NCBI GenBank assembly: GCA_002633005.1
Contig: NMRA01000196.1
Location: forward strand, 145,632-209,631
DNA: 64,000 nt
Source: Phoronis australis
Lineage: Eukaryota; Animalia; Phoronida
Direction: 5' to 3'
The position numbers and the translations under genes are program-made. Below the pieces are notes generated by a model that saw only the letters and a list, made by a program, of their open reading frames with translations, was not told the DNA's origin and did no database searches. Within the stretch, counting starts at the first letter, position 1. Each line of letters begins with the position of its first letter. This document shows positions 12,620-64,000 of this stretch, one piece after another.

Positions 12620-13162
12620 TTATCGCAAAAGTTCGCAAAACAGGTCTTAAATATCATACAACTTTCTGGACCATTAGCTGTCACTCCAAAACAGTCCTAC
12701 AGTGAGGCTCTGTTGGATAGATTCTTCGTAGATAATGTCACTTCCGAACAAGAAGTGCTTCTTCGACACCATTTTTGGGAAAACTTACTAGCAAACCCCA
12801 TTCTGGAGGTACATATTAAACGAATGTTCGGAGAGATGCTATACCATTTTGGATGCATAAAGCAACCGCAGAATACTGAAAATCTGGGCACACTGAAAGC
12901 TTTTGTGGTGCTGGAAAAAGAGCCACCTGATGTAGCAAATGTTGTAGATGCAGTAAGAACAGAAAGACACCTAGGCGGCTTGGAGTCGATAGAGATATGC
13001 ACGTTTACCTGGCAGATTTTGTGTGGTCAGGATTGTAAGCCACCAGCACATGTTGTCCTTGGTAAGATGTACGAGATGGTAAGCGAAAAGCAATCACTTC
13101 CTTACCATTTTTGTGACTGTGCAAAATCTTGTGTGCACAAAAGTCACACACTCAACGAATAA
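12620..13162 (+). other. Unassigned ~180-codon open frame (possible exon or TE protein remnant)
   Basis: Preceded by a pyrimidine tract and CAG (12617-12619); protein-like composition; no family recognised and no ATG start. Confidence 0.3.
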
Positions 13163-37112: not shown

Positions 37113-38084
37113 TCAATTCGGCGGTGGTACTACATTGATAGTGATGATCGAACGAAGTACAGTGAGGCGTAAAATTCTGAATAACCCAAACAAAACTGAC
37201 ACTATGTTTTTAGTCATGAAGAAAAGTCCTGAATAAGGAATGACACCAAAGAAAATGATTGCAGAAACACGCAAAACGGCGAACGGCAGATTCATTAAGA
37301 AGATGGACGATAATATTAAAATAACTTCACTGGTTATGTTTTCCGATGGAGGATTAGAAGCTTGCGGTTCTACGTATCCCGGTGAGAAAATAGACGTGGA
37401 CGCTTTCCTTTGAAGGTCAGGGTCATCTTGCTTGAATTCTACTCTGTCCGAGCCAATGATAAAAGTAAACTGCAGCATACTTAGTGAAAAAAATCCCAAA
37501 ACTGCATTGACGAATCTTGCATCGGTAACGGAACCTTTGTAGTTAAGTAAATCCAACAGTTCCAATATATCTGCGCATGTAAACGCTTGCAATAGCCATA
37601 GATTCGATAACTGCCGGTCGCTAAGGTGACGCGTAGGTAACAGCCATCTAGCGAAGACCACCAACAAAAGCGTTGAACTCTCGAGAATGATTGCCCATCG
37701 CCGCAAAGGCATGGTAACTATTCCCTCAGCACCAAATACATGGACTCGATGCGAAGATTTAAAATTGAAATTTCCAGAAATCTGGGCTTGTTCTTCCACT
37801 TTGGTCAGCTCCACGAGCCAAATAGAAGGCAATACAGCTAGCAGATACAATAGGAAATTGGGACAAAACCAACTTTTCCACTCTCGTCCGTGAAACGCGA
37901 ATATGACGACTAGCAATTCAAATATGAGTCCAGGAAGTGGAAACAAAGTCAACGACCACCATCTTGATGCAATGTGGTGTCCTTCATAAAACATTAACAG
38001 AACTATGCCACCGTGAAGAATAAAAAGGGTTCGGGTAAAGAGAGTTCCAAATAAGACAAATCCTTTCGTGTCACGTACACCCAT
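37113..38084 (-). CDS. TMEM26: TMEM26-family multi-pass membrane protein, single coding exon, 323 aa
   Basis: Family motifs TRTLFILHG, GREWKSWFCPNFLLYLLAVLPSIWLVEL, ARWLLP, LSNLWL..ADILE, SLSMLQF, PFAVLR and FFMTKN; intact ATG-to-stop ORF. Orthologue vs paralogue is unresolved. Confidence 0.9.
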   Translation of the reverse strand: MGVRDTKGFVLFGTLFTRTLFILHGGIVLLMFYEGHHIASRWWSLTLFPLPGLIFELLVVIFAFHGREWKSWFCPNFLLYLLAVLPSIWLVELTKVEEQAQISGNFNFKSSHRVHVFGAEGIVTMPLRRWAIILESSTLLLVVFARWLLPTRHLSDRQLSNLWLLQAFTCADILELLDLLNYKGSVTDARFVNAVLGFFSLSMLQFTFIIGSDRVEFKQDDPDLQRKASTSIFSPGYVEPQASNPPSENITSEVILILSSIFLMNLPFAVLRVSAIIFFGVIPYSGLFFMTKNIVSVLFGLFRILRLTVLRSIITINVVPPPN

Positions 38085-40287
38085 TGCGGTAGTTTGTTTA
38101 TCACCGAATATCCGTAAAATACGTTTTGAATTTCATTTTCTTTTTCTTCAGTATTTAATGACAAATCTTGAATAAAATGTTTCGTCAAGCTTGAATGGCT
38201 AAAATAAAGGGATGACGTTATAGAGCGATTGTGAAATCACGTAATAAATTGTAATATTTGACATTGCTAAATCTTCAAGTTTAAAGTTGGATTTGCATCC
38301 CGTGTGCACATTAAAGTCAAAACAGTGTATATAGGCTTTGTTTTCGACAGGTAATAATTGCTGACTTAAAGCATCATATCTCAGAAATGACTGATCGGAG
38401 TGAAATACTTGTATAATATTACTATTGATTACATGTATGTGTTTCATGCTCTCGACTCCAAAACTGTTTGAAATTGAACCACAGTTGTGATAGTGGCTAT
38501 CAAAATTATGTCTATAATGATTTTTAGGAGAAAATCAAACGTTGCGTGAAACGATAAAAACGAAGTGACAATTTAGAAAATTGTAACTGCGTTTCTGATA
38601 TGTCGTCTTGAACATTCATATCAAGCAAAATATGGTCATGTTATTGTTGAGGATTCATATCAATCAAAATATGGTCATGTTATTATCGTCCATGTGTTGC
38701 CATACATGTACATGTACATGTTCCTTTCTTATTTGGAACAGTTGTACTTTTACAAAGACGTGGTCACGTAACCCACACACTGCAGATTGAAAAAAATCAA
38801 AAAATAAATACCAAAGGATTTCGACTCTCAGAGAATGTATACTTAACCTACGTTGAGGTTATCTCAAACTTTGTTTATTGGCCTCCACTCGTATATAAAA
38901 AACTAAGCCGACTAGAAAAGTATATATTTTCTGAAAGAAAAAGACCAGGGAATATGAAAATAGGTTTTGTACTTAATATATACCATGATTATTATTATTT
39001 CGTTACCATCTTTTTAAGCCAAAATTCCATTTTAAAAAAGGTGCATTCAAAGAAAAGTAACCCTCAATTTTAATGAATCCCCTTTTAAATAAAAATTTCA
39101 CCATTTACCTCCAAAACTCTGTTAGGACTTTTCGATTAGTCTTTTCTTTTGGTTTCTATGACAAATCAACTCGCAAAACGTATGGTATTTTTGCAAAAAT
39201 AAAAGTCGTGTTTGTCTTGGTTACATTCGTAAAAACTAGGCCTTTATAATGAAAATAGTACCGTCGTTTTTTGCGATGAATACACATTAAGTTTAAAAAA
39301 ATTCAGCGACATCCACCAAGCCGTTTAGGAGCACTCGTGTTCTTAAATTCAAATAAAGCAGACTTGCCGAAGTAGAAAAAAGCCGATTAAACTGGGACGA
39401 GTGAAAATCTCAAAGTCTTCGGTTAATTATTCGATGAAAACTTCTTTTCCTTCAATGTAATCTAAACATGACCTAACCATGTTTGCTATTTCGACATTCA
39501 CTCGCAATGTCAACAGAATTCGCATTGCGTAATTAACTTAAATATTATGATTAAAACGCACCGTCTACAGCCACGAGTTGGGATCAACAGTTCATTGATG
39601 TACATATACGCTGTAGTCTGTACACATCACGTGCCGGGAGACTGATATGAAACCAAGTAGAAAATGGATAACCAAAACCTAGTCGGTGGTTAAAGCATAT
39701 CGTTAGTATGAGATCAGAACAGCGAAATACCAATTTACTTATTAAATTAATGAATTTGGGTGAGAATTTATCTCTTTTCACAACTTGCTTTGTTCATGAC
39801 TACAAAAGCGTGAGCACAACTCTCTCAAGATCGAAACTACACTTTTTATTTTTCCCGGCACGTTCTATCATAAGTACAGTACACCTCGTTGACTCAATAT
39901 TATGGCGACTCTGTGAATGAAAGGATTGAGGGTGCATACGAAGCTCTTCTGTACGTGGCGGGAAATTCGGTTTTGAGTAACAGCCCTGTAACCTTTGACC
40001 TCAGCTAAGACGTAAAGAAATATCCACACGGTTGTGTGGTTCCAAGGTGGTTCTGCAACATCCTTTATCGCGCTACACGGTATACATTTTGTATTTGATG
40101 TTCCCCGAGAATCAAGAAGAGGTATTTTTGCTAGACACATGTGAAATACTGTAAAAATGGCCAATTCTGTGAATAAGGTTTGAAACAACCTTAAATTGTA
40201 CGGTTTTGTACACCTTTGGCCGTTGTCCAGATTTGGCAGTATGGTCCAACCATAACCTTGAACAGAAAGTTTCATTTCTAGCACAAA

Positions 40288-44123: not shown

Positions 44124-46866
44124 ATTACGGGCTGGTTAGTCCTGTGTCACACTGCCGCCGCAGACCTTAGTTAGCCTCAGTCAGCAGCTACATGTACCAG
44201 TGAAGACTATCGTCAAAATACAGCTTGTTAGTAGGCCTATACAGCTTTGCGCCAAGGCTACCCTTACAGGTAGGCCTAACTGGTCGCTGGCCACAGCGCT
44301 CGCTCAAACGAGGTTTACTTAGAACTTGGGTACTTCTGGCGAACTGTGCAAAGTTGTTGGCTTTCAATAGAGATTTTCCCAGACTTTGTATGAGCGCACC
44401 AAGCCTAAAAGAATGGGGGGGGGGCTGGAATTTTTGGGAATGTCTATATTTTACTGTAAGATTCAGTGGGTCTGTTCAGAGCTATGAATTGCAGACTCTA
44501 AATTTTGGTACTTCCTGTCTTCTAGTGGAATATTGTCACATTTTCTACTTTTTTTCGGAAATCGTGCTTCTGTGACTGAGGCAGACCTTTTTCCAGTTCT
44601 CCAAAAAGGGGGCTCGTTCGAGCACATAAGTATGACAAGTCCAATACAATATGTTATCATTTTTTATTCATTAACCCAAAATGATTCAAACTTTTAACAT
44701 AATAAGTAACTTAAAATGCACAATACTTTACAACATTTAGCATTACAGCACTATTCAACAGCAACAGTTTCCATGATATGAAAGTGGACATACATGTAAC
44801 TATTACCATGGTGACGGAATAGTGTTTCCTTACACCAGAATTTGACAAGCATTATGAAGTTGCAAGGAACAAGAATTAGAGGCTTTAAGCTTCACAATCC
44901 AACATAGCTTATTTCCCAAATTCATATTATTCATATTGTATGTTGACTTGATAACCTGAATTAAGAAGCAATAACTTACAAAACATGACTTGAAAGCAAT
45001 TCAGACTTAAAATTTAGACAATATATGAATCACTTTGTGACACCGAATCAAGACATGAACAGCAGTTCACAGTCAAACAAAAAACCGTTTCAAAATTATT
45101 TCAACTATTGTTTAGCCTAGTGTAAGATCACCTGAATGGGAAATTTACAGTAAAATAATTCGAATACATCTTATATTGTTGCACAAAAAACACGTAAATT
45201 GAACAAATTTTCTTTTTGTAGCAACGTTTGTCAAAATGTATCACAATAAATCTTCACAAATTACAAAGTAGCCGATTGAACATGCCTTTCAGTTCAGCAA
45301 AAGTCGCCATGTTGTCGGTGCCGCCAGAAATGAAACGAAGTCCAATGGGAATTGTGATCACATTTATCACTTAATGAGTAACTGAAATTTGGTGCACACT
45401 GTTACATGTAAATCGTGCAGAATAGTAAGTAAAGATATGTCTAACTAAATTTCACCTTAATTTGTTGGCAATTTACACAAAGTTTTAAACTCGTAATTAA
45501 TCCCGCTGTCCTCCAATATGGCCGACGCCATCCAAACAAAGTGACCCAAATTTCACCACAAAACTTGCAATAACTTTACACTGCTTGCCCCGATTTTGAT
45601 ACTTTTTCGATTTTTACTGAGTAGAATGCACTACCTTTCCGATTATTGCAAAGTACTTTTTTATAACGAGAAAAAATAAAACCAAAAAATAGGTTCGACC
45701 AAAATTGGTTCCTAGGTTCGACCGGCCTACGTAAGGGACTAAACTCCAATGCTATTTTAAAATACTAAGTACGCGTAACATTCCAAAAACATCAACGACC
45801 ACTAACTACGAACTATAAATACACTACATATGCAAACGAATCACGAGATATTACTTACAGAACAAAATAATGAAGACTTTTCGAGCAAACGATAGCACAT
45901 TCAGTTACAAGGAAAAATGGCGGCTTTCAGGACAAGTTCCTGAACTGATGAGCCGGAAATGTGGGTACGGAAATAACCGATGATAACCGGTAATCATATG
46001 CTCAGAGAGAAGGGTCAAATACTGTTCAAAATCGCTTTTGCCTTCCACTAAAATCGAATAATATGAGTTCAAATTCAGGGACAAGTTTGAATCTATGCAC
46101 TGGAACAATTTTGTTATGATGAACACTGGGTCATTTCTCTAGTTCTTTGGGTTAAGGCCGGCGGCAAGTTAAAAAGTCCACTGAGTTTGGCAGCCTAGCT
46201 CCTCCACGGCGCGTTCCTAGCAAAGAAGCACGGTTTATTTCAAAAAAACTCTACTCTGACGGCATGTAATTGTCCATGTCTCGCACGCGCGGCGTGTCTT
46301 CACAGTGCGTGCATGCACTCTCATCGAATCGTGCATCACCACCCACGTCGACGCTCAGCGTCCTCTCGCAAGACACCTCACCTTTCCGACTTCTCTTGCA
46401 CGCGCACATTTTTCTGCACTGAATCCTGAAGCTGAGTGTGGTGATGGCTTCGCCTAGGACTTCGCGCACTCAACTTAATTTTTTGCAGATGGACAAACGG
46501 CTCAGTTCACCATTTCACCACCAACTTTCACATGGTCAAACATAGAATTATTTTATTCTTAGTCTCGCTTCAACATCTGTATCAGCTGGTACAGCACTCT
46601 CGATTGCCCGGTTACGCAATGTTTGTTGACAGTGTTAGCGTCCTTGTATAAGCTCCGCCCCAGTTGTCAGTCACTGAGCTGGTGAGCAGTCAAGCCACAT
46701 GACTTACTTAAGCTTGGTCAAATATAATTTAAAAAAAACATCTTTGGATTTTCAGCCAATAATTTTATTTTTCTTCATTATACTGTGCATCAAGAGATAA
46801 AGATTAGGGTGAAATAAAAATGTAAAAGAACAGTCGAAATTATTTTTGTGTATCCACCTACCTTAA

Positions 46867-47368
46867 TGTAATCTGGAACATTCTAGAGCCTATTGTACAT
46901 TTATGTTGGTGGAATGATAGGGTAGAAGCCAGAAAGTTCTAGAATGTGCATGAAGTGGTGAAAAGTTCTAGAACATTGCAATAGATTATAAATACCCAAG
47001 CACGGGTTTGTGATAGTTATTTGAAAGATAGTTACAAAGGGTTACAGCTGAGTTGCACTGAAGAGAATCAGCAGTTACAACGATAGTCGATAGAGAGCCA
47101 GCTATCGAGACAGAAAGTTATTGAATCAGCGTGTGTAGCAGTTGCTGGAAGTGTCTCAGAAATTGATCACAAGTCAAGGCTTCGCAGCACTGGCTGAAGC
47201 ATAGGACAGACATTACGTCGGGCGTTTTGTTTGAGTAGGTTTGTGAACGTATGGATGTAATCAATGAAGTGATTAAGTCGAATCAGTCTTCAGTCTATCG
47301 TCGCACCGAAAGCTATCCACGGGTCAGTAACCACCTGTACCCACTCGCACACGGGGAAAAACGTGACA
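46867..47368 (+). mobile_element. Solo-LTR-like sequence with heat-shock elements
   Basis: TGTAA...TGACA ends, TATAAATA at 46987, and nGAAnnTTCnnGAAn arrays at 46875, 46931 and ~46965. No TSD seen. Confidence 0.5.
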
Positions 47369-47594
47369 AACTCCAAGGACATGTGGAACACCTCAAATTT
47401 TCTCTCTTTTCGTGATGCGACTCCATTTTGGTCATAAAATTAGAAGTTCACACTTCATAGAACGTAGACAGGAAATTCATGCAATACATGTTATTGACCT
47501 ATAGAAAAAGAATTGATCGCGACACATTTATTGATTTCAATGAAATATGAGTTGCTGAATTTTAAATGGTCATAATAAAAGAGCATTTGTTTTC

Positions 47595-47932
47595 TCACTG
47601 AGGCTCAACACGAAACTGTCGCATGGCGAAAATCAGTTTTTGTTCTCTTATAGTGATTGCGGCTTCTACGGAATCTCCGGCCTTGTTGAGACGTTCTTCA
47701 GCGACCTCTGTTGCCCAATAAAAAAGCAACAGCACCCCTAGACTTGCTGCTTCTGCATCGTCCTCGTTGTACTTGCTCAAGATGTCAGTAGCGCGAGATG
47801 CTATTTCTGGTTCCAGCCTCCTGTTGTTAAACGATTTCAGCATTGCAAGAAATCCATGGTGGTCATCGTTTCGAACTGTCTGGCACAGAGCTCGGCACTG
47901 CTCCCATTTCCTTGTAAGGCCTTCGTGGTAGC
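47595..47932 (-). CDS. Type I membrane protein with dynein-MTBD-like C-terminus, exon 3 (last)
   Basis: Acceptor ACTTTTCTTAAG|GC, phase 1. (G)YHEGLTRKWEQCRALC...FLAMLKSFNNRRLEPEIASRATDILSKYNEDDAEAASLGVLLLFYWATEV...PQ*. AATAAA at 47527-47532 (minus). Confidence 0.85.
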
Positions 47933-49334
47933 CTTAAGAAAAGTGTATATGTTACCTACTTAAGACCTAGTTGTTCACAAAAGTATCAAATAGTAAGCAG
48001 CATAGTCTGTTTCCATCAGTAAGCGCACTGTGTGTGGAAAACCTTGTAGCAAAAATACTGAGACCGACGGCTTATTTTCTACGTTGAAAATACTTTCACT
48101 GAAAATGTTGTGATGTCCTAGACAATAGGCAAGTATTTCATTACTAAGGAACATCTAATATTTTGTACGAAGACAACATCCAAACCCGCTAACGGATATG
48201 CAAATGTCTGGTGTTAGTGGTAATTATTCCTTATGAACGGAGTGGAAATATAATATCAAAATACATGCATGTACTACTCTGAACACAGACTTTCAAAATT
48301 CGTTTGTTGGTGGTTTTAAAAGATAGATAATCATCACAATTAGTGAATATTGCTTAAAGCATAGAAGTCACATTCTGTATAAAATGAGTCGTGGACAGAT
48401 TATGACGAACTCCCCAGCGGTCAGCCTTTCATAGTCAATAACTGACCGCTCAATTGACTACCGCGCACCTCATAGACTAAGAACTGTACTGTACAAAAGA
48501 AAGACCAAAAGCAGTCGGTTCTGGAATGTTTTTAAAAATCAAGGCGGTGCAGCGTTATTTGTATTTGGTCGCTCACTTTTTCAAAAATGAAAATCAATCT
48601 GAAATGAGCACAACTGGTACGAGATTAAACAGTGTTAACCGTGATGTTTGCTGGGGGTAGACAGCCAAATGACGTCGTATGGAAGTTGCAAGCTATTGTA
48701 TAACTTGTGAGATCCAAGCGACTGTCGTAAGCGCGTACCATGGTTATGGCCTATGGGAAGCTACCATTGTTTCCTTTGTTGCGTCTTTGTTGGATATACT
48801 GTAATAATACAGGTTGCACAGATATCGTACATTGGGCGCACATCAGCCGGTTACCGAAAAATCCTTACCAAGTAAGAAAGAAAAGCAAAGTGAATAATGG
48901 ATTCGCCTATCTACCGATATCTACATGTATGCGACGAGCTTGCGACCTTGTTTCCCGTGGGAAAGCCCAAACATTTGGAGGTCGATTGCTGATGGCAATG
49001 CGTTCTGTTTCTCAATATTGAACTTGAATTTGCTCTAGCAAATCATGTATCTTATAATTCTAATGAATGTGATCAGGCTATATCGACACTATCCCAGTGT
49101 AATGCTACAAACAGCTAAAATGTCATTTTGACAAGATTGAAATTAACCGCAGTATTTTCAGATTTTACTCCTAATTTGTGTTTCACGATACAATTTAAAG
49201 TGGCTTGGGACGCTAAAAGCAGACTAAAGTGCACTATTCAAAGTCACTCTCTATCACTGAAACAGAATTCAACCTGCTAACTAGGTATTTCTTACGGTTT
49301 GCTCATAAAGACTTTTAATTTCGGTTGATATTAA

Positions 49335-49436
49335 AGGCGAAGGCAACCTTTTTCCATGTCATTTTGAGCTAAAATAAGGTTGGTTGGCTATCCTAGACAT
49401 ATTTTCCACTTAATTACAGCTTCTCGTAATTTTGTT
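49335..49436. mobile_element. Solo Kolobok TIR fragment
   Basis: TTAA|AGGCGAAGGCAACC...CGTAATTTTGT, then TNTAA; ~100 bp nearly identical to the TIRs of 54258-55941. Confidence 0.8.
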
Positions 49437-50459
49437 NTAAAGCACCTTTCTTTTAGTTTCAAATTTTAACAAACGATCTGTCAACTGCTCGTCACTTCGT
49501 CGATGTTTTTCCGTCAAGGCAAATCACGTCTCCTAATTTGGTATGGCAAGAAATACATATAGACATAGGACATTTCACACACAAGGAAAATGTGACCTTT
49601 AACCTTTAATTTCAAAAAACGATGGCGACTTAAAGACATACGGTCCGAGCTATAAAGGAAAAAAACTCTTAACGCCGATTTAGCCGTTTTTTGTATGACA
49701 TCAAGTTCAAAAAGTTATTAACTTTGCACGCGCGCAAAAAATGATCAGTGGATTCCTGGTTTTATTTTCAAGATTGACGCAAAAGGCTATATTAGCAGGC
49801 GACAGAACAATGATTGATTGAAATCTCCAAGATAGGGTTTAGTATCCATTTATATATCATTGAAATATATACCTTCCGGTCAATGCAAAAATTCACCAAG
49901 GCATCTAAGTCCCCCAGCACTCAGTTAAAGAGAATGTGTTTTCAAAGACCAACATGTTCACTGACTTTCAATACAAGTTATTTACGCGGAATTAATCACA
50001 AGCGCGCTGAGAGTGCTGGCACGCAACGTGCTATCAACGGCAGTGATAGACAACCTATTTATGACTGGAAAACAAGGTTTCTTTCCACAATGAAATCGAT
50101 TGTTCCTTCAACTATTCCCAACAACTCCTAGAATTTTCTCCATGACGTGAAAACTGATAGCTGACTGATCGGACGAGAGATTGATATAAACATGCACCTT
50201 CAAAAGCCCAAATATAGTCAGCTTCGTGAATTACATAAAGGATGGTGACTTTCACAATCTGTCAATATGTTGGTTTTCAGAGCGTTGCCTCCAGATCGGT
50301 GATTACCATATTTTTGAGGTCTGAAAACCAAAATAAGGACCTTGTCGTATAATATTCAACTTTACATTTTCACTATGATAATTGCTTGCAAAGACTTTAG
50401 AAACCTGTTTGTGGCATATCTTTATTGGCCAATTTCAAACCTTTCATGGTACTGATATT

Positions 50460-52182
50460 TTGGCAGTTTCTAATATTATTTTTCTTCAGTGCCAGGACAC
50501 ATGCGCACGAAAAATATTGCACTTAGTTTACGGATTGTGACAAAGAGAACTTGGAGAGGTTTCAGTTTTGATTCACAAGCAATCAATAGAAATGTCAAAT
50601 ATCAATAAAGACATTTTGGGGCATTTGTTTAACATGTACCCAAAATACACTCAAATATGAGAACCGTGAAATGTTTTGTTGGGAGATGAAAACAGGTTTT
50701 GGTTCTTATTCTAGAAATACCGCAATTCGTTTGAAAACCCAATATACTCTAAATAGTGACACAATAGAAATTATTCAGAATGCCAAAATTCTTGTTTTGG
50801 AACTAAATGCACTGGAACGATGTACAGGCAGCGAGACTGCTTCGATTTTTTACGGTGTGTGGAAAGTGAATTCAATTTGAACGTCCATGCATAAGGCATA
50901 CATGTATTCAGAAGATTAAGTCCTAACTCCGAGCTTGCGAAGTTAGTAAGTCTGGATCACGTGCGCATTGTGCAGAGTCTGAGAAATCCATTTGCCGTTT
51001 GTCATCAACTAGAGACAACTATGACAGTTTTNNNNNNNNNNNNNNNNNNNNNNNNNNNNNNNNNNNNNNNNNNNNNNNNNNNNNNNNNNNNNNNNNNNNN
51101 NNNNNNNNNNNNNNNNNNNNNNNNNNNNNNNNNNNNNNNNNNNNNNNNNNNNNNNNNNNNNNNNNNNNNNNNNNNNNNNNNNNNNNNNNNNNNNNNNNNN
51201 NNNNNNNNNNNNNNNNNNNNNNNNNNNNNNNNNNNNNNNNNNNNNNNNNNNNNNNNNNNNNNNNNNNNNNNNNNNNNNNNNNNNNNNNNNNNNNNNNNNN
51301 NNNNNNNNNNNNNNNNNNNNNNNNNNNNNNNNNNNNNNNNNNNNNNNNNNNNNNNNNNNNNNNNNNNNNNNNNNNNNNNNNNNNNNNNNNNNNNNNNNNN
51401 NNNNNNNNNNNNNNNNNNNNNNNNNNNNNNNNNNNNNNNNNNNNNNNNNNNNNNNNNNNNNNNNNNNNNNNNNNNNNNNNNNNNNNNNNNNNNNNNNNNN
51501 NNNNNNNNNTTGGCAGTTTCTAATATTATTTTTCTTCAGTGCCAGGACACATGCGCACGAAAAACATTGCACTTAGTTTACGGATTGTGACAAAGAGAAC
51601 TTGGAGAGGTTTCAGTTTTGATTCACAAGCAATCAATAGAAATGTCAAATATCAATAAAGACATTTTGGGGCATTTGTTTTAAAAATGTGATTATAAAAG
51701 CTATGTTTTATAGCAAACGATTTGAAAAGTTGCGAACTACTTTGAACCTTTATTGGACGTGTACACAGCAAAAGATGTGTTAACATGTACCCAAAATACA
51801 CTCAAATATGAGAACCGTGAAATGTTTTGTTGGGAGATGATAACAGGTTTTGGTTCTTATTCTAGAAATACCGCAATTCGTTTGAAAACCGAATATACTC
51901 TAAATAGTGACACAATAGAAATTATTCAGAATGCCAAAATTCTTGTTTTGGAACTAAATGCACTGGAACGATGTACAGGCAGCGAGACTGCTTCGATTTT
52001 TTGCGGTGTGTGGAAAGTGAATTCAATTTGAACGTTCATGCATAAGGCATACATGTATTCAGAAGATTAAGTCCTAACTCCGAGCTTGCGAAGTTAGGAA
52101 GTCTGGATCACGTGCGCATTGTGCAGAGTCTGAGAAATCCATTTGCCGTTTTTCATCAACTAGAGACAACTATGACAGTTTT
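50460..52182. repeat. Near-identical direct duplication flanking an assembly gap (N 51032-51509); probable haplotype artefact
   Basis: 50460-51031 is repeated at 51510-52182 with a few SNPs and ~100 extra bases in the second copy. Confidence 0.85.
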
Positions 52183-52775
52183 CACCTGTCTTGAGAAACT
52201 ACATGTATGAGATTCCTAGAATTCAAAATGTACCTGATGTTCCCAATAAACCATATGCTGATGACTAAACCTCACAGCGTTTTCGTGTACATGTACATGT
52301 ACATGAAAGTTCCGAGACTCCTGAAAGGCGCATAGGTCCGATACTAAATGGTCTGTGATTGTATTTTGTTTTACAAATTCACGTTCAAAGCAAGATGTGG
52401 CGGCCTCGTAATTTCGAGTAATGATTTGTCGTTTTGGGACATGGATTCGTGTATCTACCAACCGAGAATTTAAAAAATCACATGCGTTCATCCACTTCAA
52501 CGCTCCGTACGAAAGCATTAGCATCTTAAGTTAAACAAAAGTGACTAATTGCCAAGAACCGCCACTCCAACGGTAGATAAACCTGTATAATGCGTTCATG
52601 TATGTTAGAAATTTAGAGATTTCTCACGTGTCACGTAAGGAAAACTATTAAGGATCATGCATTAGTATATCGGTTGTATTAATTCATTATTTTATGATTT
52701 TATTTCTTATTTTATTCTCTTACTTTTAAAGTAAACTTAAAGCTACAACAAAAATTGTTGAACTGAAAAACGTAC

Positions 52776-52989
52776 CAAGTATAAGAAGTGTTGCTTTCAT
52801 GACGTCATGAACGACTTTCTTTGGCTTTTCATATTTTCTAATTTCCAAGATCATGTTTGTAGTTAATTCTGCCGCTGCAAGTTTCATTCTTTCCACCCTC
52901 GCAATAGACTGTAGGCGGGCCTCCGCGGCAACCACGTCGGCTCTCAACAACTTCCGCACATCACGAATTTGCTTGATTTCTTTCAAAAC
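52776..52989 (-). CDS. Type I membrane protein with dynein-MTBD-like C-terminus, exon 2
   Basis: TTTTATTGTACATGTAG|GTT (phase 0) ... CTTG|GTACGT (phase 1). VLKEIKQIRDVRKLLRADVVAAEARLQSIARVERMKLAAAELTTNMILEIRKYEKPKKVVHDVMKATLLILG. Confidence 0.85.
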
Positions 52990-54591
52990 CTACATGTACA
53001 ATAAAATGCAAGTAAAGAGATTAGTAACAGGATGCAATTGTATGCCTGCAGCCTTTTTATAATTCAATGCTTCCCAGAATACCGGCAGGGCTTCACCTCA
53101 GTAAGCTGTATCAGGGTTTTCGAAAGAGTCAGCTACTTGAAAAAGTTCCCATAATGGCTCTTTCAGTCCCCATGTACGTATTACGGGACTGTTTTGCATG
53201 CCAAGAACATTTGAAAAATTCCAACAAGATGTTTAGTTTTGTCTTAATAACCCGGCAGTTCAGAGCACTTAGAATAGATGAACGAGGTACCAACATCTAA
53301 CTATAGGGGCACTTGGAGTCGTAACGGTCAAATCGCGCAATAAGCGAGTGATTCTGGGAGACATGACTGGCAGCAAAGGGGCATGGCATCAACGGAATAC
53401 GTGACGTGAGACAGCGGCCTGTTTGGTAAAAATGTCTGAAGCGCAGTGTCGGATTAAGGTGTTGCGTGACTGTATTCTAATCTATTTTTATACAACCACC
53501 GAGTCTTTTAACCAATTCTAATGATCTGCTGGATGAAGATATTGACGGATGAGAGACTCTTTCACCAATTCTCCACCCTCTCATAGCTACATGTAATCAA
53601 TGTCACTATCGCTTGTTGTCAGTCATGGAAAATCTCCGACACCGTTATAGGCGTATCAAACTTTGACTGGTGTGGCTGTTCGAGGGGGTCACATTAAAAA
53701 CTTTCACTAAATGAAGGGTTACGCCAATTTTGCCCTCTCATGGGATTGCCACAAAATTCCCCCAGGTCGACACCAGCTTTGAGGCCAATGCTGCCGAAAA
53801 TACCCCTCCCGTTAAAGAAGTTTTGAGAACATGCCCAGTAATCGCTTTTGCATTATATCCGGGTTTTCATTCCCTTCCATTCACTCACCAGGAAAACCGA
53901 GTTCGGAGGAGTAGGAGACCCCTGTATGCAATGCTCGTTTGTTTGCCATTAAGGCCAAGACACGAATACGGGTCTTCCAAACGGGAGTCTGAGGCCTACA
54001 GTGTCATTCAGGTCGCTACCGATTTCACCCCCTTCTTTGTCTTTCCAGAATTTTCAGTTCGATGCTCAGCTGCCTGATTTTTCATGGTATACCCAAAATG
54101 TCCTAACTTTTTGACCGAATATGAGGACCCAATTGCCCAAGCAAATGCGCCTACAGCCGTATGGTCACCGCGGTTTATAACTAACCTATATTTTCACACA
54201 GGTCTACGCGATGACATGAAACGGGCTTCCGACAACTTCAGTTGACTTGCGTCTTAAAGGCGAAGGCAACCCTTTTCCATGTCATTTTGAGCTAAAATAA
54301 GGTTGGTTGGTTATCCTAGACGTATTTTCCACTTAATTTCAGCTTTTCGTAATTTTATAAATTACTCGATAGCTACGCCGGAAGTGACGTTTTAGGAGGC
54401 AAGCGTTTCCCGCTTCTTGGATTTGCGTTGACTTTACCGTGCGAATCTGTTCAATTCTACTTTTGTTTTGTGCTGTTTTTCAAGAATTGTCGCCACCACT
54501 TTTCATTGGCGAGTATTCTGCGGCAAGATAGGTTAGTAGAGAACTCAACTACGTTGGATTTAGGGATTGTTTAGTGTGTTGTAAGCTGAAA

Positions 54592-54893
54592 ATGGCTGGA
54601 GTCGGTGACCCGTATCACAGTAACACTAGTGTGACTGACGGAGACCTTGTTCAAAGCAGTGGTGACGAGGAATTTTTTCACGGACATTCAGTGGGTGGGT
54701 ACATGTTTGAGCCGAGTATAACGAGGCAGAGTACGCACAGGCACAGGCAACTGTTGAGAGAAACGAGGCGGCTACTGAGGACAGACGTGGTGACACATCT
54801 TGGTGGAAATGCACTGTGTGCGTTGTTATGCCTACGTCAATGGAATGCTGGTGCTGTTCAGAGTTCGACGAGTCCAAGCAACTACTGGACATG
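54592..54893 (+). pseudogene. Kolobok KolX (P2X7 C-terminal-like Cys-rich protein) 5' fragment
   Basis: GYMFEP, then a 1-nt frameshift, then EAEYAQ...RRGDTSWWKCTVCVVMPTSMECWCCSEFDE; truncated at the deletion junction. Confidence 0.8.
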
Positions 54894-55676
54894 GTTAAGT
54901 GGACCTCCGGCATACCACGGACAGAGGAACAACTCTCCCACTTGCCAGAATGTCCCGCGACACACTCCCACTGGATGGTGACCTGAGCACCCAACTGCTT
55001 ACATCGTGTCGTGTGACTCCCTCGCCACACACCTGTCACCTTCTAAATAGCTCCAATACAAGTCCACAATAAACTTATCAAAGTTTGGCTCACCGATCTG
55101 TTTACTGGACGACGAACTGTCCTCTTCACTGGGTGTCGAACTGAGCCTGTAATCACTCCCACTACTCAATATCGCTGCAGGGCTGCTTAGAGGCTCTGGG
55201 CTGGAGAAAACAGCACAGGGCGAATCACTACTGGTTCCAGGAATTGCACGCTCTGGGGTACGTTCGGAGGCACGGGTGACAGTAGATGAAGTGCCTCCAC
55301 TGGCTCCAGTCACTGTACTGGCCACAGCTCGCGAGGCTTCTCGCTTCAAAAACGCACTTCTCGGGGGTGGCGACGGGGCACTGCCGGGAATCAACACAGA
55401 CGGAATGGCATCCTTCTTCAAGCGTTGTTTCGCGGGGACCTTCATCAGTTCAGCGTACAAATCCCTTTCGTAATCGGACGGCAGAAAGTGCTTGCCACAC
55501 ACACGGTAATTCTCCACTGCTTTGTACGTTGCGTGGACGGGTAACGCTGCGTTCTTCACACGAACGAGCCAAGTACGGCGAAGTGTGTCATCCATCGGAA
55601 AGCGATGCAAAGGCACTCCCAAAGCGCGCGTGAGCCGATAATTACTACATCCCGGTACGCAGCAACAGTGTGGCAT
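54894..55676 (-). pseudogene. Kolobok THAP-domain transposase 5' fragment
   Basis: THAP C2CH motif MPHCCCVPGCSN...LHRFP...W...RVCGKHF...LKKDAIPS, then KFIVDL, a frameshift, and LGAQVTIQWECVAGHSGKWES..VRGMPEV. The DDE core is deleted. Confidence 0.85.
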
Positions 55677-56911
55677 GTTGACTGACTAGTAAATGAAAGC
55701 GAACGACGACGGAACTTAACACAACCGAGGTAGAACAATGACTGACTCGGCAGCTCTCACAGTCAGACTACATGAAAAGAAATTGGCGCGAAATGCTTGC
55801 CTCCTAAAACGTCACTTCCGGAGTAGCGGACGAGTAATTAATAAAATTACGAAAAGCTGTAATTAAGTGCAAAATATGTCTAGGATAACCAACCAACCTT
55901 ATTTTAGCTCAAAATGACATGGAAAAAGGTTGCCTTCGCCTTTAAAGTTCGTCAAAGTTCTGGACTAGATCAAACACCTTCTGGTTATTTTACATATTTG
56001 TAACCCGAGGCAACCGATAAATTTGAGGGCAAGGGAGACGTGTCGCGGAGATTAGGTGCATTTCTCAATTTTCTAGTGACGATTTCGATAAAAATTTGAT
56101 GTTTCAATTCAGATGAAGTAGGCAAAAAAATAGGATAAGGGATCTTTATTTTGTTCAACGCAAATTTTGGCGTGCCATTAAAATGTCGCCAAATAGAGCG
56201 ACTTCAGCTAGCCACAAATAATGAAACTTAACTTCATCAGATTTGTAGATCATAACTAAGACGAGATTCAAAGGGTGTGTCATATTTTAATGCCTTTCTT
56301 TGTAGGTGTAGACATGGAGCACAGCTCAAGTTCTTGGTGAAAAGTTTATGCTCAGTTTGGCCTGTTGTATATTTCGTCCAAGATTTGGGCGCCCACGTGG
56401 ACTCCTTATCCTAAAAGGATGATTGACCCCGGGTTTGCTAATTGAGGATTTTTTTAAAGTACTAGTTCAGTATCAAAATGACAACTGTGCTGTTCACTAC
56501 CACTAGCACTTATCTAAACGCTTATTTTATGTGCCAAATATGCAAAATTTTTCTTCAACAAAGGGCAAACTTTTATCGCCGTTTTCGATGACTCTGTCAA
56601 TTTAAAACACATTATTTTTATGCCTGTGTAGATTTTGAAACAAAACTGTATACCTATTAAATAGTCCATACCCAAGGGAAAGCGTGCCTTGGGTATTTTT
56701 TACAATCAACCTACGGGTTATCAGCTATCTGTATAATCACTTACTTAAAGAAGTTACTTAAGAAATGATTGTCATTGTTTCAGGGTAAATCAAACCTGTA
56801 AAATAATTGACGCAACATTAATCAAAGGCCAAGTGGCAGTCATTTTGTCTGGCGTGCAGCCATGCAACGCTTCTGATCAGTTAACCGACACTCAAATTTG
56901 ACTACACGATA

Positions 56912-59900
56912 TAGTCGGTGGGCCAGATTTTGTAGGGCCTCTAGAAAATGGTTTTTGTGAGTACTTTAGGGGGGCAATTTTATTTTGGTGTTTTTTAATT
57001 CATTTTTAGAGTGTTTTCAAAATCTAAAAAGTTGCCACATATAAACTTGCACATTTTTGAGAAATTTGAGTATGAAGTTACCTAATAATCACCAAAGAGC
57101 TTAGTAAACTTATATTTGTAAAAACAACAGTTTTGGTGACTTTTTTGTAAAACAAGTAATATGGTCCCATCAGTGCCATTGTATTGAACAATATTACACT
57201 CACATTGCATGTTTTATTATTGTAAATTAATTGTAAACAGTAAAATTTAAAAAACGTAAAGAGACACCTAGTGGCAAAAATGCAAACTAAGTCTGAATGT
57301 TACTTGGAAGTTATTCTGGCATTGTCAGGCAACAAAAATAACACAAAACACTTGAGACTGGGCAAAATTTGTGCCTCAATGACTAAAACATTGACTAATG
57401 GTGTAAAATACAGCTTGTTTGCATAATACACCAGAAATACGTTATAGTACAAAAACAATGTAGTTGAATGATCTCTGTGAATGTGCACAAAGACTGTATG
57501 AAAATAATAGATTATTCTGACAGCGTTTATCAAGCAGTATGAGACAAATACATGACAATGATCAAAGTATGTACTTTCTATGACTTAATCAACAAATAAA
57601 ATTAACTTTTTAATACAAAAAAGGAAATAACGGGGTTGGAGGTCTATTTAGGGTTGACTTGTCAAAGAACTATCCAATGTTATGCAGTCAGTGTTGCTGA
57701 TGTTACTACAGTTGTCACAGCTGCACATTTCTGTACAGTTTGACCCAGCATTGCAGCACAAACTCAGTTTCCCAGCACACATGTTCTTTTTGCACTTGCA
57801 GCGTTCATCGTTTAGTACTGTCAATGGAGATGCGGTCATTGCCATACATATTAACTGCAAAGCTCCACCGCCAAGGAGCCAACTATGGTCGATTAGAGAG
57901 GGTACAGCACTGCACACTGGTGATTAGCCCACAGGCAATGAAGGGTCAAACACAAAGTCATTGTTTGGAGGCGGGCACTATTTGGGCAAACGTTTGATTC
58001 AAAATATGTTACAATGGGCTGTGTTAATTAGAGTCAGCAAGTGAATTATTGAACACTAGCCTCAATTCACTTTCGTATCTCTTGGTCAGGCACAAACTAC
58101 AACAGTGAGTAGCTTCAACAATATTTCTTAAAATTGCCTGTCCAAATAACTTCATGCACACCAGCTTTCTGAAGAACAGCTTCAAAGTCTTGCTTTAGTT
58201 TTGAAAGGCAAATGATATCTCCTTGTGTTAGAAGCTTCGATTCAATGAACTCCAAACAAAACTGCTGAAAACTGTGAATTCGTCACTCTTCACAATCGTT
58301 GTCTTTCTATTTTTATAGATCTGTGGTACTTGGCTTCTGAGACACAAGGTCTTTATCTTTGAATTGCATTTGCATATTCAGGGCTCTGGACTGAGCTGTT
58401 GCTTGCGATACAAGTCCAACTGAAAAAAAACCCTAACTGTTAACACTAATTTAACATTCAACTATGAGTGAGTTGGCATGCAACTTTTTCAGACGGACTT
58501 ATCAGGAACTGATCCACCACCAGTCTAACAAATTTACATGCCGTCTGATCTGTAGCCTAATAATGTTGATAGTCTAATAATTAGATCAGTAGATGCAACT
58601 GAAAATAAATCAGCTGATATACCTGCGCAGTGATTGAAATTTAATTTTTTAAATCAGATGCTCCAACCATAGTCAATCGATTTACACTTAAGGTAATCGA
58701 CGTTTGACGAAATGGACAGTGGCTTCCATCGTACTCAAATTTAGACAGAGACGATGGACACTTGGGCACTTTAATTTAATTATCATTGCAGCTACCTAAG
58801 TAATCAATGTTTACAAAAAATTGAGACTACGGCAAGGGACGACGGCCACTTGGGTATGTTGTTTGCAACCATCTACTCCATTTAACCTTCTCAAAAATTT
58901 TTGACTTTAAAATCACACCCACAGCATAACGCCATAGGATTATCCCTTAGCGCAAGCAGTGTCGATGTGGCAACTGAATGGAGTGTTCGAAAAACAGGAT
59001 TGCAGGAGTACTTTTTTAAACTGGGAACAAATGAAAACATTAACGACCTCCTCAGAGGCATCTCTCTACGCGGTACTTTTAAACTTATAGGAACATAATT
59101 TGCCGAAAAGTATCCGGCATATGAAGTACCTATGGTATGATCATCGTCTCTACTGGGTCAGCAGTATTGCCTAAGGCCTAGGCAGCCAAGGGGCTGAACA
59201 AGTTAAAAAACAACTGGTGATAATACTGAAACACACATGGAAAACACCAAGATGTATTTTTAAAAAACACGTACCTGTTTTTGAAAGGTACTTCTTTCTC
59301 TTTCTTGAAATGTGGCCCATAATGTACTTTTCCTGCTAACAAATGATGCAATGATGTTTCAGAATGTTCCTATCTTGTTCAGGTTAATTGGGTGTTTCAG
59401 ATTTTGGAAGTATAATTGATTTTCTTCGGAAATCTTGGATAGTATCTGTATCACTTTCACCAACTTCAGCTTTAGTACTACTGTTGTTGCCTTGAAACGT
59501 TGCTATGCCGTTCTATGTCCTTTCAATTTTTTGGTCTGACACTTGGTCTTCTAGTCTACAGTACAGCACTCAGCAGTATACTGTGACTGTGTAGGCTACC
59601 AGGACATGCAGCTGTTTTCTGCACAAACGTTTGTGACACCTCTTCTTCTTTTCGATCTACTGATCTACAGAGTTCCACAGTCAATCAGCTTTCGTCAGGA
59701 AGCTTTCCTAAGCTTCTTTAGGCTCTGACATCACAATTTTGTGCTGTTTGATAAACCTTGAATTATACAGGCATCGCACTCCATGGGAGTAGCCATATTG
59801 AAGTAACTAAGCACAACAATACAATCTGGCTCTCTGATTGGTTAATTCACTAGAAAAGCGCCATCAAGTGGCAGGAATGTGCATCATATTTTGTGCAACA

Positions 59901-60054
59901 AAAACGCCTTTTTTTAAAAAAATGTGCAAGTGTAGACGTGGGAACTTTTTGGAATTTGATTTATAGGTATATTATCTAGCCACATAGAAAAAAACTAGGT
60001 TGCCCCCCAAAGAACTCACAAGGATGAACGTTATGAGATCTGGCCCACCGACTA
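56912..60054 (-). mobile_element. Academ non-autonomous element (second family)
   Basis: Perfect 17-bp TIR TAGTCGGTGGGCCAGAT/ATCTGGCCCACCGACTA with a 3-bp TSD ATA. Remnant Cys-rich C-terminus at 57648-57917 on - (RCKCKKNMCAGKLSLCCNAGSNCTEMCSCDNCSN). Confidence 0.85.
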
Positions 60055-60846
60055 ATAGTGTATCTTGTCTTCAAATAAAATCAAAGTAACAAAGAAAAAA
60101 CACGTTCATGTCTAGAGTACAACGTGTGATCACTGCCTCGCCTGTTCAGTTTTTAGAGTTCATGAATAACATCTAATGCAGGTCCAGTAAAGTCCACCCG
60201 TAAAATACATTTTAACGGATAAAAACAACTTCTTCACAGCGTTTAAAAAGCCTAGTACGAGAAGTTAGGTATCGACTATACAAAATGTACTTTCGGTCAA
60301 CGGAACCCTCTGATTTTCCAAAGAAACGTTTATTGAGGGCACTGTGACTGCAAGACACGTAAAGAATGATCCTGCAATCACCAATCGCAAAATGCACACG
60401 TATTTTTCGACTGACGGCTGCATCCAGGCTCACAAGAAAAATGGGATCAACCAACCCAGTAGTCAACAGAATTACACAGAAACTTCGCCATACAATTTGG
60501 AATTCATACAATCAAAGAAAACAATACTCCTACTGTGATCACGTGACATATGCATTTATGTCTAGACTTGATTGAATTCAACCGGTTAAGACATCTCATT
60601 GTTTCTCGATGACGACTTCCTGTTTACAGACCAATCAAATATCTTAGCCGGTTGACCCGGCGAAGGCAGTCAAGTGCAGCCATTGTCACACGCTCTCACG
60701 CCCACATTTTGGGCTTCAGGGCTTGTGCGTTATGAATGTGAAAAGACTCTTGCACATTTCTTGGTTAAAAATTTAAAGCATTCTTCGACTCAAACATAAG
60801 TTGTATTCATCTTCTCAAAAATTGATGTCAAATGTTTGCAACTTAC

Positions 60847-62160
60847 TTGTGTTATCTTCTTTATGTCTTTGTCTTCCAAAGCTTCGTTAAGCTCTTCTTT
60901 TAGTTCATAACCAAACAGCAAATCTTTTCCCCTTTGCAAGAGTCCTTCTTCAAAGCTTACCGAGTAAAATTTCACTTTGTTTATAAAGTTTTCGTATTTT
61001 GCTACTGCTCTCTCTAATTGAAACTGATTCTTCTCTGGATTATTTTTCACAGCCTCAAACAGGTCTCCCGCCAACTTTTCATTTTCCCTCTCATACTCGT
61101 CTAAAATATCAGGGCTAACATCAATCGTCATGAGATGGTCGTCTGGAGGTTCTTCAAAATTCGCTAACGAGGCAATCTCGTGAACGTTGAATACACTCTC
61201 GTCTGTGTGCGAAAAATATTTTTTGTAATCTTGTATGGTAGACACTGTTAAGGTTTTATTCATCGATTTGGTGCCACTTGCAGTTGGATTTTTCTTGTTC
61301 AAATCTAACGACTTGTTATCATTTTCGGAAAGACTGTATCTAGGCGAGGAGCTGTTTGGTGTGAAGCGTTCTTGTAGTGGGTTGCATTGGGGTCTACTGT
61401 AAGTACTTACATAATCGTTTATTGGACCCTGATTTGGTAAATCAGCAGACTCGTTATCTGTTGATTTCATCTTTCTATTAGACGGTGGAAAACCATTCCA
61501 CGAATCAGGGTTTTCATGATTCTCATTTTTCATGTTATTCGTTGGTTCACATTTCTTCTCCGAATTGATTTCACAACTTGAATTTTCTGCACAGCTTACT
61601 GATATATTGGGGTATTTAGGCCTAGGAATAACTTGTGTGTTACCCGATCCGTCAGAGGACCCGACTTTTTTCTGCATTGTACCAGCATGAGGAGATTTTG
61701 AAGGCACTTGTATGCTTGAAATTTTGTTTGCTGAAGGTTTGTTTTCAACAGCATATGTTGTTTTCTTCTTAGTCCAGTAAAAAGCACCAAGGACGGCTAG
61801 GCAGACAACACAGACGCCAGAAATTACCCCCACAGCAATGGTTGTAGGGGAGTTACCTGAGCCCTTTTCAGCAGGATTAGGAGCGACCAATCCCAGAGAT
61901 AGAGACGAATTGCCACCTGGACAAATTAAACCTTTGCAACTGAAAAGTTTCATGTGAACCGTGATTTCGTCTTTGCAGGACATCATAACAGCAGAGCCTG
62001 ATACACTGCAGGATATCAGCATCTTCAGTTGTATTATGTCATCGTCATTATTAGTGCAATGCAACTGTTCGCGAGTGGTTTCTGAGCAATCGAGAGAATT
62101 ATTCCGCGACAATACATATGGTCGTTGGAGGATGAAAATAAGAATCAGAGCTAAGTCCAT
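60847..62160 (-). CDS. Type I membrane protein with dynein-MTBD-like C-terminus, exon 1 (signal peptide, Cys-rich ectodomain, TM, cytoplasmic tail)
   Basis: 438 open codons from ATG 62160: MDLALILIFILQRPYVLS signal-like, a 6-Cys ~90-aa ectodomain, TM IAVGVISGVCVVCLAVLGAFYW followed by TKKK, an S/N/P-rich linker and helical repeats. Donor CAA|GTAAGT, phase 0. Confidence 0.85.
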
Positions 62161-63231
62161 GAATTTGTTCACGAGATACAGTAGGGTTCATGTATCACAC
62201 GTATTAATTAGGGCAAAGCTCCGGTATTGTGACGTGCAACTTGAATCATACAAACATTTCGTCAAGTGTAATTCAAATTTAAACAAGAAAAAAACTAAAA
62301 GACAGGAATAAAAACGATGACAAAAAATCACATTTGTAGACAAATTGTAAAATCATCAATGTAGCTCACTATTGTACTGTTCGATGGGAATACACTCTAA
62401 GGAAAGGGTTTATGAGAATCGCATCCTGTTTTTAGCCAAAGCGGCAACAAAATCCTGCAGAACATAGAATTTATTTCACTCGCTTCTTTAGACTGCTTGT
62501 GCAAAGATCACGTTTAATTTGTTAACGATGTAGAATTAGTTTCAGAAATGTATTGTTTTACTTGGACCTCCCCTTTCGTAAAAAGCTGGATCTGCTTATG
62601 AACGTGCATATTCTCGTTTCCAACTGCGTGGTTGTAAGTGTGACGTTCAAGCAAAGCAACACGTACTGTATGCTGTGACATGTGCACTTGTAGAACGATT
62701 TGCCAAGATGAGTTAAGCTGTCAAAATCAGGGCCCGGGTTCTAAGCTTTTACTCGAAATGGAACTCTAAATTATGTTTGGCATTTTCTACTCTATTTTCG
62801 TGCGAACTCAAGATAACTGTCTATTATTATATGCTCGAGTACATGATGGCTTACGTGGATATTTTTTAGTCCTAGTTTGCAGTTGATAAACCCATCAATA
62901 GGGCTAAAAGTTGGAGATTGAACTCGAAATTTCCAGGTTTTACTCGAGTTTGTAGTACGGATAAGGGTCATCAAACTAGGACCTGAAACTCATATGACTA
63001 AACTATAAGGTATTCGAGCACAGTCTAATAACCACTTACACGTATCTTGAGTTCGCACAAAAGTAGCAGAGAAATAACCAAAGAAAATTTATAGTTCGTT
63101 TGGAAGAAAAGATTTTAGATTCCAGGCTCAGATCAAAGAATTGGTGGCAAACAAATACGACGTCAAGTTACATTGTATGTTTTATTTTTTCCTATAAAAA
63201 CGTTATCACGATCGAAAGTGTTCTACATCGC

Positions 63232-63382
63232 CTATGACAAAACCGCATATCCAGCGTAGTACATGTCCAGGGCGTCGCCAATGTCCAGCAGAAATGCAGC
63301 AACAAAACCGCCAATATACATCGAAGGGACGGCAATGAACGACAACCAAGCCAACACTGCCATACCGGATAGGAAATTACCA
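63232..63382 (-). CDS. Probable terminal exon of a gene extending beyond the window (hydrophobic C-terminus)
   Basis: Acceptor TTTTGTATCTTTACAG|T; GNFLSGMAVLAWLSFIAVPSMYIGGFVAAFLLDIGDALDMYYAGYAVLS*; AATAAA at 63181-63186 (minus). Confidence 0.5.
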
Positions 63383-64000
63383 CTGTAAAGATACAAAAAT
63401 GCCTAAAACCAGTAGGTGTACCGAGGTACTCAGTTTCTTTGGGCGTAGCCTTTCCTTTTTCTTGTGTATTGAATGTGTTTCAAATTCTTTTAAGATTACT
63501 ATGCAATATTTTTCATTTCTTAAAATGAAGAACGCTCCTAATCCCCCCAGTTATACACAGAACCCAAGACCCGGGGCCAAAAAAGAATCACTTTCCAAGA
63601 TATCCATGTATATGTACATGCATTTCGGGGCAACAAGGTAAAAGTTGAGAGTTTTCTTGAGTTTTACTCGCGCTACTAAACACAGCATGCCCGTTGATTC
63701 TGATCCGGAAGTGATGCCAAATGGCTTGAAGTACAATCTGAATTTTGTCCAAAACAACTACATTTACCTCAACGTGTTGTTGTATGTAACACAGGAGAGG
63801 GTCACGCGAGCTTTGCTAGATCATTTTTTGTAAAAGAGCCATCCACACACTTATTCATTTTATAAATTCATTATTTATTCAATTTTTGACTAAATGTTTG
63901 TAAAGAGTCCTGTTGCGTGACACGTAGGAGGTGTAAACAGGCTGAAATAGAATGAAATCGTTGATAAACTTTAATGCAGGGCACACCTTACAGCCTCAAC

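Follow-up and report, generated by a model that had tools for sequence, protein, structure and literature searches.

In this study, we analyzed a 64,000-nucleotide window of the Phoronis australis genome (assembly GCA_002633005.1, contig NMRA01000196.1, positions 145,632 to 209,631 of the forward strand; all coordinates below are those of the window) and characterized a three-exon gene on its minus strand (47595..62160). Its 621-residue product is predicted to be a single-pass membrane protein that ends in a module with the fold of the dynein microtubule-binding domain (MTBD). The MTBD is usually presented as a component that belongs to the dynein motor alone, with an affinity set by sliding of the stalk, whereas the fold here appears to be a portable, stalk-less invertebrate module that stands behind KY/hillarin domains, EF-hands or, in Phoronis, a membrane anchor. 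The fold itself is known; the widespread motor-less module is apparently undescribed and its membrane-anchored architecture apparently new. Searches of the open-licence literature found no description of a membrane-anchored motor-less MTBD protein, nor of the C-terminal module of KY/hillarin-like proteins.

A preliminary description of this DNA, made from the letters alone, had joined the three exons into one frame of about 621 residues, and RNA reads now crossed both introns of this model, including the joint of exon 1 to position 52989. By splice sites and reading frame, the exons at 62160-60847, 52989-52776 and 47932-47595 are separated by GT-AG introns of phases 0 and 1, and the spliced frame comprises 1,866 nt, i.e., 621 codons and a stop. 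Four runs with the same species label (X1-X4; three raw RNA runs, with about 18-19% of each covered, and one contig set that is presumably RNA) were aligned to positions 44500-64000. Intron 1 (52990-60846, 7,857 nt) was crossed exactly by 11 reads with 9 starts in X1 and 7 reads with 7 starts in X2, and intron 2 (47933-52775, 4,843 nt) by 7 reads with 7 starts and 7 reads with 4 starts, respectively. Both introns were thus crossed as modelled in two of the four runs; X3 and X4 showed neither joint and no cover of exon 1, and expression of the gene therefore varies between samples. Every joint read had its first mate on the plus strand, as expected of minus-strand RNA in a usual stranded library, and cover of exon 1 on that strand was even (17.6 and 19.6 in X1, 13.4 and 12.9 in X2, 0 in X3). 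The reads were mostly 90-99% alike to the window and hence stem either from individuals that diverge from it or from a close relative. As they are 151 nt long, the membrane segment and exon 3 never lie on one single molecule.

All features of the gene lie on the minus strand. Coding exon 1 (60847..62160, residues 1-438), marked by its open frame, GT donor, even stranded cover and joint to exon 2, carries the signal-like N-terminus, the Cys-rich ectodomain, the transmembrane segment, the linker and the first helical hairpin of the module. Exon 2 (52776..52989, residues 439-509), with RNA joints on both sides, would encode the end of the second hairpin, a short CC1-like helix, and helices H1 (with E487 and R489) and H2 of the MTBD-like head; exon 3 (47595..47932, residues 510-621 and the stop), joined by RNA to exon 2, would supply H3-H6, a CC2-like helix and a short tail. 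The possibility that the exons belong to different transcripts was rejected on the RNA joints and on the module, which begins in exon 1.

The N-terminal half has the layout of a type I single-pass protein. A signal peptide with a short hydrophobic core is predicted by eye at residues 1-18 (62107..62160); 19-residue Kyte-Doolittle averages there stay at or below 1.3. An in-frame stop lies 9 codons 5' of the ATG at 62160. A predicted small extracellular or luminal domain follows (61849..62106, residues 19-104), with six cysteines (25, 35, 51, 62, 75 and 80) and two N-x-S sequons; it matched no Pfam family at E ≤ 0.5 and gave one chance-level match in the PDB (E 1.4). Hydropathy places a single transmembrane helix at about residues 105-128 (61777..61848), the best 19-residue average being 2.64 at residue 108, and a KKK stop-transfer lies at residues 131-133 (61762..61770), in agreement with the single KKK-flanked segment first proposed. 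Net charge changes from 0 before the helix to +3 after it, on which basis the C-terminus is predicted to be cytosolic, signal peptide or not. A low-complexity, S/N/P-rich linker spans residues 134-345 (61126..61761; 212 residues, S/N/P 15/12/9%, six Tyr) and is predicted from its composition to be disordered. The SxIP motif is absent from the whole 621-residue protein. The N-terminal 340 residues found no relative in a word-index search of proteins near exon 1 in length, metagenome contigs, Pfam or the PDB; the metagenome contig scan with exon 1 returned 113 pattern matches, none of which was confirmed.

For the C-terminal half, a search with exon 3 against 1.84 billion protein representatives yielded nine matches, five of them real. 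The other four (P0003, P0004, P0005 and P0009) were dropped as repeat artefacts, each matching in 7-10 short stretches with no BLASTP match to the spliced protein. A profile search gave eight matches, one already known, so that a total of 12 motor-less relatives was obtained, two of which are fragments. Seven are KY/hillarin-like, one is an EF-hand protein and four are orphans or fragments, which bears out the link to invertebrate KY/hillarin-like proteins that the preliminary description had drawn. All seven KY-type proteins carry KY Ig-like domains (PF23265), and five also the transglutaminase-like core (PF01841). The KY-type relatives include proteins of pearl oyster, oyster, scallop, snails and Lingula, the orphans and fragments those of an annelid and a sponge, and the eight relatives with a named source are all from invertebrates. 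The closest is P0002 (Ridgeia fragment KAK2168167.1), with 34% identity over 190 residues by BLASTP; head identity to the motor-less relatives ranged from 24 to 38%, and to the KY/hillarin-like ones from 24 to 36%.

A profile of the module built from 11 relatives, with the Phoronis protein excluded, scored 137.5 bits against the spliced protein over residues 375-594, compared with 46.6 bits for exon 2 and 57.2 bits for exon 3 singly. Residues 340-438, the last 99 of exon 1, scored 9.6 bits, a value that none of 1,000 shuffles reached (maximum 8.4), so that the module starts with a helical hairpin repeat (60847..61038, residues 375-438) that shares its exon with the membrane helix. The module comprises two helical hairpins and an MTBD-like head with the pattern EI-x-x-Y / LLLG / W / W. 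The borrowed unit is larger than the MTBD of the preliminary description, and the 'helical repeats' listed there as a separate element form with the MTBD one borrowed module (about residues 375-594). The same C-terminal module follows unrelated N-termini, which shows that the unit is shuffled. In addition, six mostly molluscan Atlas clusters matched at 0.9 or above, the three listed having 56-71 members, and a cluster of 751 residues (EF-hand family on 16% of members) matched the module at TM 0.83; these clusters point to a motor-less module family much larger than our 12-protein sample. Exon 3 itself found only bacterial clusters in the ESM Atlas (0.77-0.81, chance level), no match in the word-index search of longer proteins and, in metagenome contigs, 286 pattern matches with none confirmed.

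Membrane attachment of the module may be recurrent. Five of the 12 relatives, all among the seven KY-type ones (P0001, P0011, P0012, P0013 and P0014), begin with MGxxxS, an N-myristoylation pattern, and several relatives may thus be lipid-anchored. None of the 12, a small sample with two fragments, has a comparable transmembrane segment: their highest 19-residue Kyte-Doolittle average is 1.79 vs. 2.64 in the Phoronis protein. As to origin, a tree of 14 module rows (Phoronis and 13 others; unrooted, without a dynein outgroup) grouped the Phoronis module with P0006/P0007 at 86/81, which is not a starred fork, and names no donor; the end branch of the Phoronis module is 1.07 against a median of 0.36, with three relatives at 1.18-1.35. 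Identity to motor-less kin (24-38%), set against the 15-21% between P0002 and aligned dynein MTBDs, makes the motor-less family, and not dynein directly, the probable source of the module. Several relatives deserve mention in their own right. The five MGxxxS hillarin/KY-like proteins are candidates for lipid-anchored scaffolds or enzymes of the cytoskeleton; in P0001 the module occurs three times, possibly through the merging of tandem genes; P0010, an EF-hand/coiled-coil protein, ends in the module and may belong to a 69-member, mostly molluscan Atlas cluster; and the Impact_N (33%) and MT (14%) families occur in a cluster that is mostly from oomycetes.

Homology of the C-terminal domain to the dynein stalk tip, as originally proposed, exceeds chance, but it appears through the relatives. 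Searched singly, exons 1 and 3 matched no Pfam family and exon 2 gave three chance-level matches, with neither PF12777 nor AAA among them; against PDB sequences, exon 3 had no match and exon 2 one unrelated match (E 1.4). P0002 reached PF12777 at E 4.6e-4, under the cut-off, and the best relatives scored 19.8 and 19.3 bits against a gathering score of 24 bits. By name or by length, each of the 24 PDB sequences that P0002 matched at E ≤ 1 was a dynein heavy chain or an MTBD construct. A 14-row family profile that takes in Phoronis exons 2 and 3 retrieved 45 dynein/MTBD sequences from the PDB at E ≤ 0.1, the best being the yeast MTBD (1.5e-8) and DNAH6 (2.1e-8); two of the 45 are labelled otherwise but exceed 4,500 residues and were counted as dynein. 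The AlphaFold model of P0002 (predicted local distance difference test, pLDDT, 93.4) gave 32 listed Foldseek rows, all dynein or axoneme entries and three of them at E ≤ 0.001. In VIA, with 48,161 chains, the top five matches of the model were all dynein stalk/MTBD (Z 15.0, 14.9, 12.6, 12.2 and 10.5; 5AYH and 3ERR at 15.0 and 14.9), the best aligning 144 residues at a root-mean-square deviation (rmsd) of 3.5, and the first plainly unrelated row had Z 7.6. The CC1-H1..H6-CC2 fold was thus found in a stand-in 34% identical to the Phoronis protein over 190 residues, and from homology to the relatives we infer the same fold for the latter.

The domain lacks the rest of the motor. There is no AAA+ ring: the 621-residue frame stops in exon 3, and Pfam found no AAA on any exon; transglutaminase sequence was likewise missing, both as first noticed. 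Instead of a long coiled-coil stalk, the head of P0002 is preceded by one helix of about 25 residues and short hairpin helices, and the Phoronis protein aligns to the same hairpin-plus-head layout. Compared with the dynein MTBD (mid PF12777; PDB 5AYH, 3ERR, 6RZB, 6KJN and 8I3J), it would share homologous CC1 through H1-H6 to CC2 and it retains the H1 Glu and Arg, but it has a membrane segment, two short hairpins for the stalk, no AAA+ ring, replacements at four of five basic tubulin contacts, and relatives that score below the Pfam cut-off. A dynein heavy-chain fragment or pseudogene was rejected, given the missing AAA sequence, the nearer motor-less kin and the intact, expressed frame. The top matches include both axonemal DNAH6 and the cytoplasmic dynein of yeast, so that no dynein class can be named as donor. 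A motif of TTLL11 called 'MTBD-like' was also set aside as an unrelated TTLL motif, going by the available text of PMC12366701.

Among known systems, the KY/hillarin-like proteins (XP_013404637.1 of Lingula, XP_041360404.1 of Gigantopelta, and A0A8B8DXZ0, 'hillarin-like', of Crassostrea) have in common with the Phoronis protein the whole hairpins-plus-MTBD-fold module. They differ in PF01841 and PF23265, neither of which Pfam found on the Phoronis exons, where a predicted signal peptide, a Cys ectodomain and a membrane helix stand instead; within the 64-kb window, tblastn of all relatives matched only exons 2 and 3. The other motor-less carriers (P0010, the orphan P0015, KAK2168167.1 and the sponge protein KAI6649563.1) show the same C-terminal module without such a hydrophobic segment. 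Hillarin has been placed both at the axon hillock and at the cleavage furrow, and acts with septins, according to the available text of PMC3081291 and PMC3718969, which makes no mention of the C-terminal module. Two other motor-less chains resemble the P0002 model, both below the safe level for helical domains (Z 11.0 and 8.6), with 9-10% identity and no membrane anchor. One is the Chlamydomonas radial-spoke chain 7jtk_C (residues 439-591, Z 11.0; 7jrj_I 461-534 reached Z 6.5), which we take to be RSP2 and whose domain presumably does not sit on the microtubule. The other is the non-dynein Toxoplasma intraconoidal-microtubule chain 9ya2_L (residues 1207-1457, Z 8.6, rmsd 3.1, 124 aligned), which from its length is probably ICMAP2 and possibly holds an unrecognised motor-less MTBD fold on a microtubule. 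The available main text of PMC12819142 uses neither 'MTBD' nor 'microtubule-binding domain', although its Extended Data Fig. 3 may already label the ICMAP2 domain; it reports that ICMAP2 binds between protofilaments, not at dynein's site. Together the two chains suggest that the MTBD fold can serve on and off microtubules.

The contact surface of the head was compared with that of yeast dynein. Yeast dynein forms salt bridges to tubulin through E3122, K3117, R3124, R3152, R3159 and R3201, and Nishida et al. found that mutation of each basic residue lowered affinity more than 2-fold (wild-type dissociation constant 6.7 µM); Dictyostelium dynein uses basic residues of mid-H3 in the role of the yeast pair (PMC7042235, available text). 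Counted by hand on the profile alignment, where all six positions give the right residue type in yeast, the Phoronis equivalents are E487 (kept), T482, R489 (= R3124, kept), E520, Q527 and A571. All 14 family rows have the H1 glutamate, which in dynein pairs with alpha-tubulin R402 (same text), and 8 of the 14 also have the Arg that follows it, R489 in Phoronis. H3 has a net charge of +2 with R523 at mid-helix, and eight further basic residues lie beside H1 and in H3 (K490, K493, K495, K496, R517, K518, R523 and R530). The 'weak' yeast mutant, as given in the available text of PMC4046564, has four residues changed, of which the Phoronis head already lacks two. Lacey et al. reported that MTBD affinity depends on stalk registry and that DNAH7 decorated microtubules poorly with its own stalk (PMC6629372, available text).

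Tentatively, and with somewhat less than even confidence, we place first a passive, low-affinity, clustering-dependent membrane-to-microtubule tether. The protein would insert in the membrane with its six-Cys domain outside and its tail inside; the flexible linker of about 240 residues would act as a leash and give the head reach beyond the bilayer; and the two helical hairpins would stand in for the dynein stalk and lock the head in a single state, without release driven by ATP. The head would contact tubulin through E487, R489 and the eight basic residues named above, weakly per copy and to real effect only in membrane clusters of the protein. Such a protein would have arisen when a membrane-protein N-terminus acquired the module of a KY/hillarin-like or related gene, the transmembrane helix replacing the apparent lipid anchor of relatives as a second solution for holding the module at a membrane. 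A bolder version, in which a cell-surface receptor with a dynein foot uses its Cys domain, helix, leash and static head to pin microtubules directly, without motor or adaptor, seems rather unlikely to us; equally doubtful is its corollary, that the protein is the integral-membrane member of an overlooked membrane-attached dynein-foot family including the hillarin-like proteins. Several results weigh against tethering. Only two of the six yeast salt-bridge residues are kept, and only one of the five basic ones; the four others are replaced, one by glutamate, which partly contradicts the direct tethering of the preliminary description. The 13 relative rows retain just one to three of the five basic contacts (DNAH6 three, by hand count), which suggests that lattice binding may not be the conserved job of the family. 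The net charge is -1 for the head and -3 for H6, and the fold occurs outside dynein feet in radial-spoke 7jtk_C. The exon-3 half folded alone, a fragment without CC1, H1 and H2 (pLDDT 71.8), gave no significant dynein match: in Foldseek nothing reached E ≤ 0.001, with dynein entries at E 3.0-6.2, and in VIA the best rows were unrelated membrane proteins (Z 6.8), with no dynein in 50 rows. Finally, word-index protein searches and metagenome scans found no orthologue of the same architecture, which is weak evidence, as the databases searched were mostly prokaryotic.

These observations make a membrane adaptor or small receptor, whose head is a platform for a non-microtubule partner such as septins, actin-linked or signalling proteins, almost as likely as the tether. 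The lost and in one case charge-reversed contacts, the neutral head with its acidic H6, the poorly conserved contact sites of the relatives, the radial-spoke chain and the reported link of hillarin to septins all favour it, whereas the invariant H1 glutamate with its frequent Arg is hard to explain without a tubulin-like partner, although a structural role is possible. Tether and adaptor alike give the protein a real membrane role, which the MGxxxS starts of relatives favour. We consider it improbable that the gene is a young, lineage-restricted chimera, in which an unrelated membrane-protein exon took up the 3' exons of a KY/hillarin-like gene and the expressed product drifts with little or no selected function: the N-terminus without relatives, the long end branch, the lost contacts and the transposon-like elements of intron 1 would fit, but the frame is intact and orders signal, Cys domain, membrane helix and stop-transfer, splicing is precise and expression run-specific, the branches of three relatives are at least as long, the absence of an orthologue counts for little in such databases, and core residues retained at only 24-38% identity imply long conservation. 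A different N-terminus has a slimmer chance still. Here upstream exons would skip or replace the signal peptide, giving a signal-anchored, internal-membrane (endoplasmic reticulum, Golgi, vesicle) or longer isoform with the head still cytosolic. The short, weakly hydrophobic signal peptide would agree with this, as would a probable non-coding upstream exon at 63768..64000 (-; GT donor at 63767) that may extend past the end of the window; its depth is 6.5/4.65/0 in X1/X2/X3, equivalent to about 206-224 nt at exon-1 depth, and its strand and run pattern match those of the gene, with no joint to exon 1 among the rows listed. This exon has stops in all three frames, however. RNA cover above 62077 amounts to about 119-137 nt, so that by depth arithmetic the RNA extends to about 62196-62214; a splice at 62150 would allow only 74 nt, and ATG 62160 is therefore probably contained in the mRNA. 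An out-of-frame upstream ATG at 62191, which can also be counted for this alternative, opens a 30-codon frame (62099-62191, -) that overlaps the start codon and, if inside the mRNA, could damp translation.

Known membrane-microtubule linkers (CLIMP-63/CKAP4, p180 and kinectin) and cortical dynein anchors (Num1 and NuMA-LGN) do the job proposed here, holding microtubules at a membrane, by basic or coiled-coil segments or by recruiting a whole motor, and to our knowledge none of them uses an MTBD fold. If the tether is real, the Phoronis protein would represent a new way to tie microtubules to membranes and a natural test of an MTBD with fixed registry; if it binds no microtubules, the fold would have been reused for another partner. 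Either outcome would make the hillarin/KY-like proteins, which are poorly understood, more open to experiment.

Around the coding exons, a candidate polyadenylation signal AATAAA lies at 47527..47532 (-), about 60 nt past the stop, by sequence only, and the 64-kb window holds no paralogue of the gene. Intron 1 contains a DNA-transposon-like element (54254-55945) with 160-nt inverted ends (93%) and a THAP frame at 54999-55685 (PF05485, E 2.3e-15). As is usual for a repeat, RNA reads of every run fall on it in both orientations. A remnant of similar appearance, without a Pfam match, begins near 6802. A second element of the intron (56912-60054) has perfect 17-nt inverted ends and a weak CXC frame at 57648-57923 (PF03638, E 0.001). 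Elsewhere, an open frame of 266 codons (12362-13162, +) has no Pfam match at E ≤ 1, and the nearest recognised neighbour is an intronless TMEM26-family gene at 37113-38132 (-; PF09772, E 8.8e-46).

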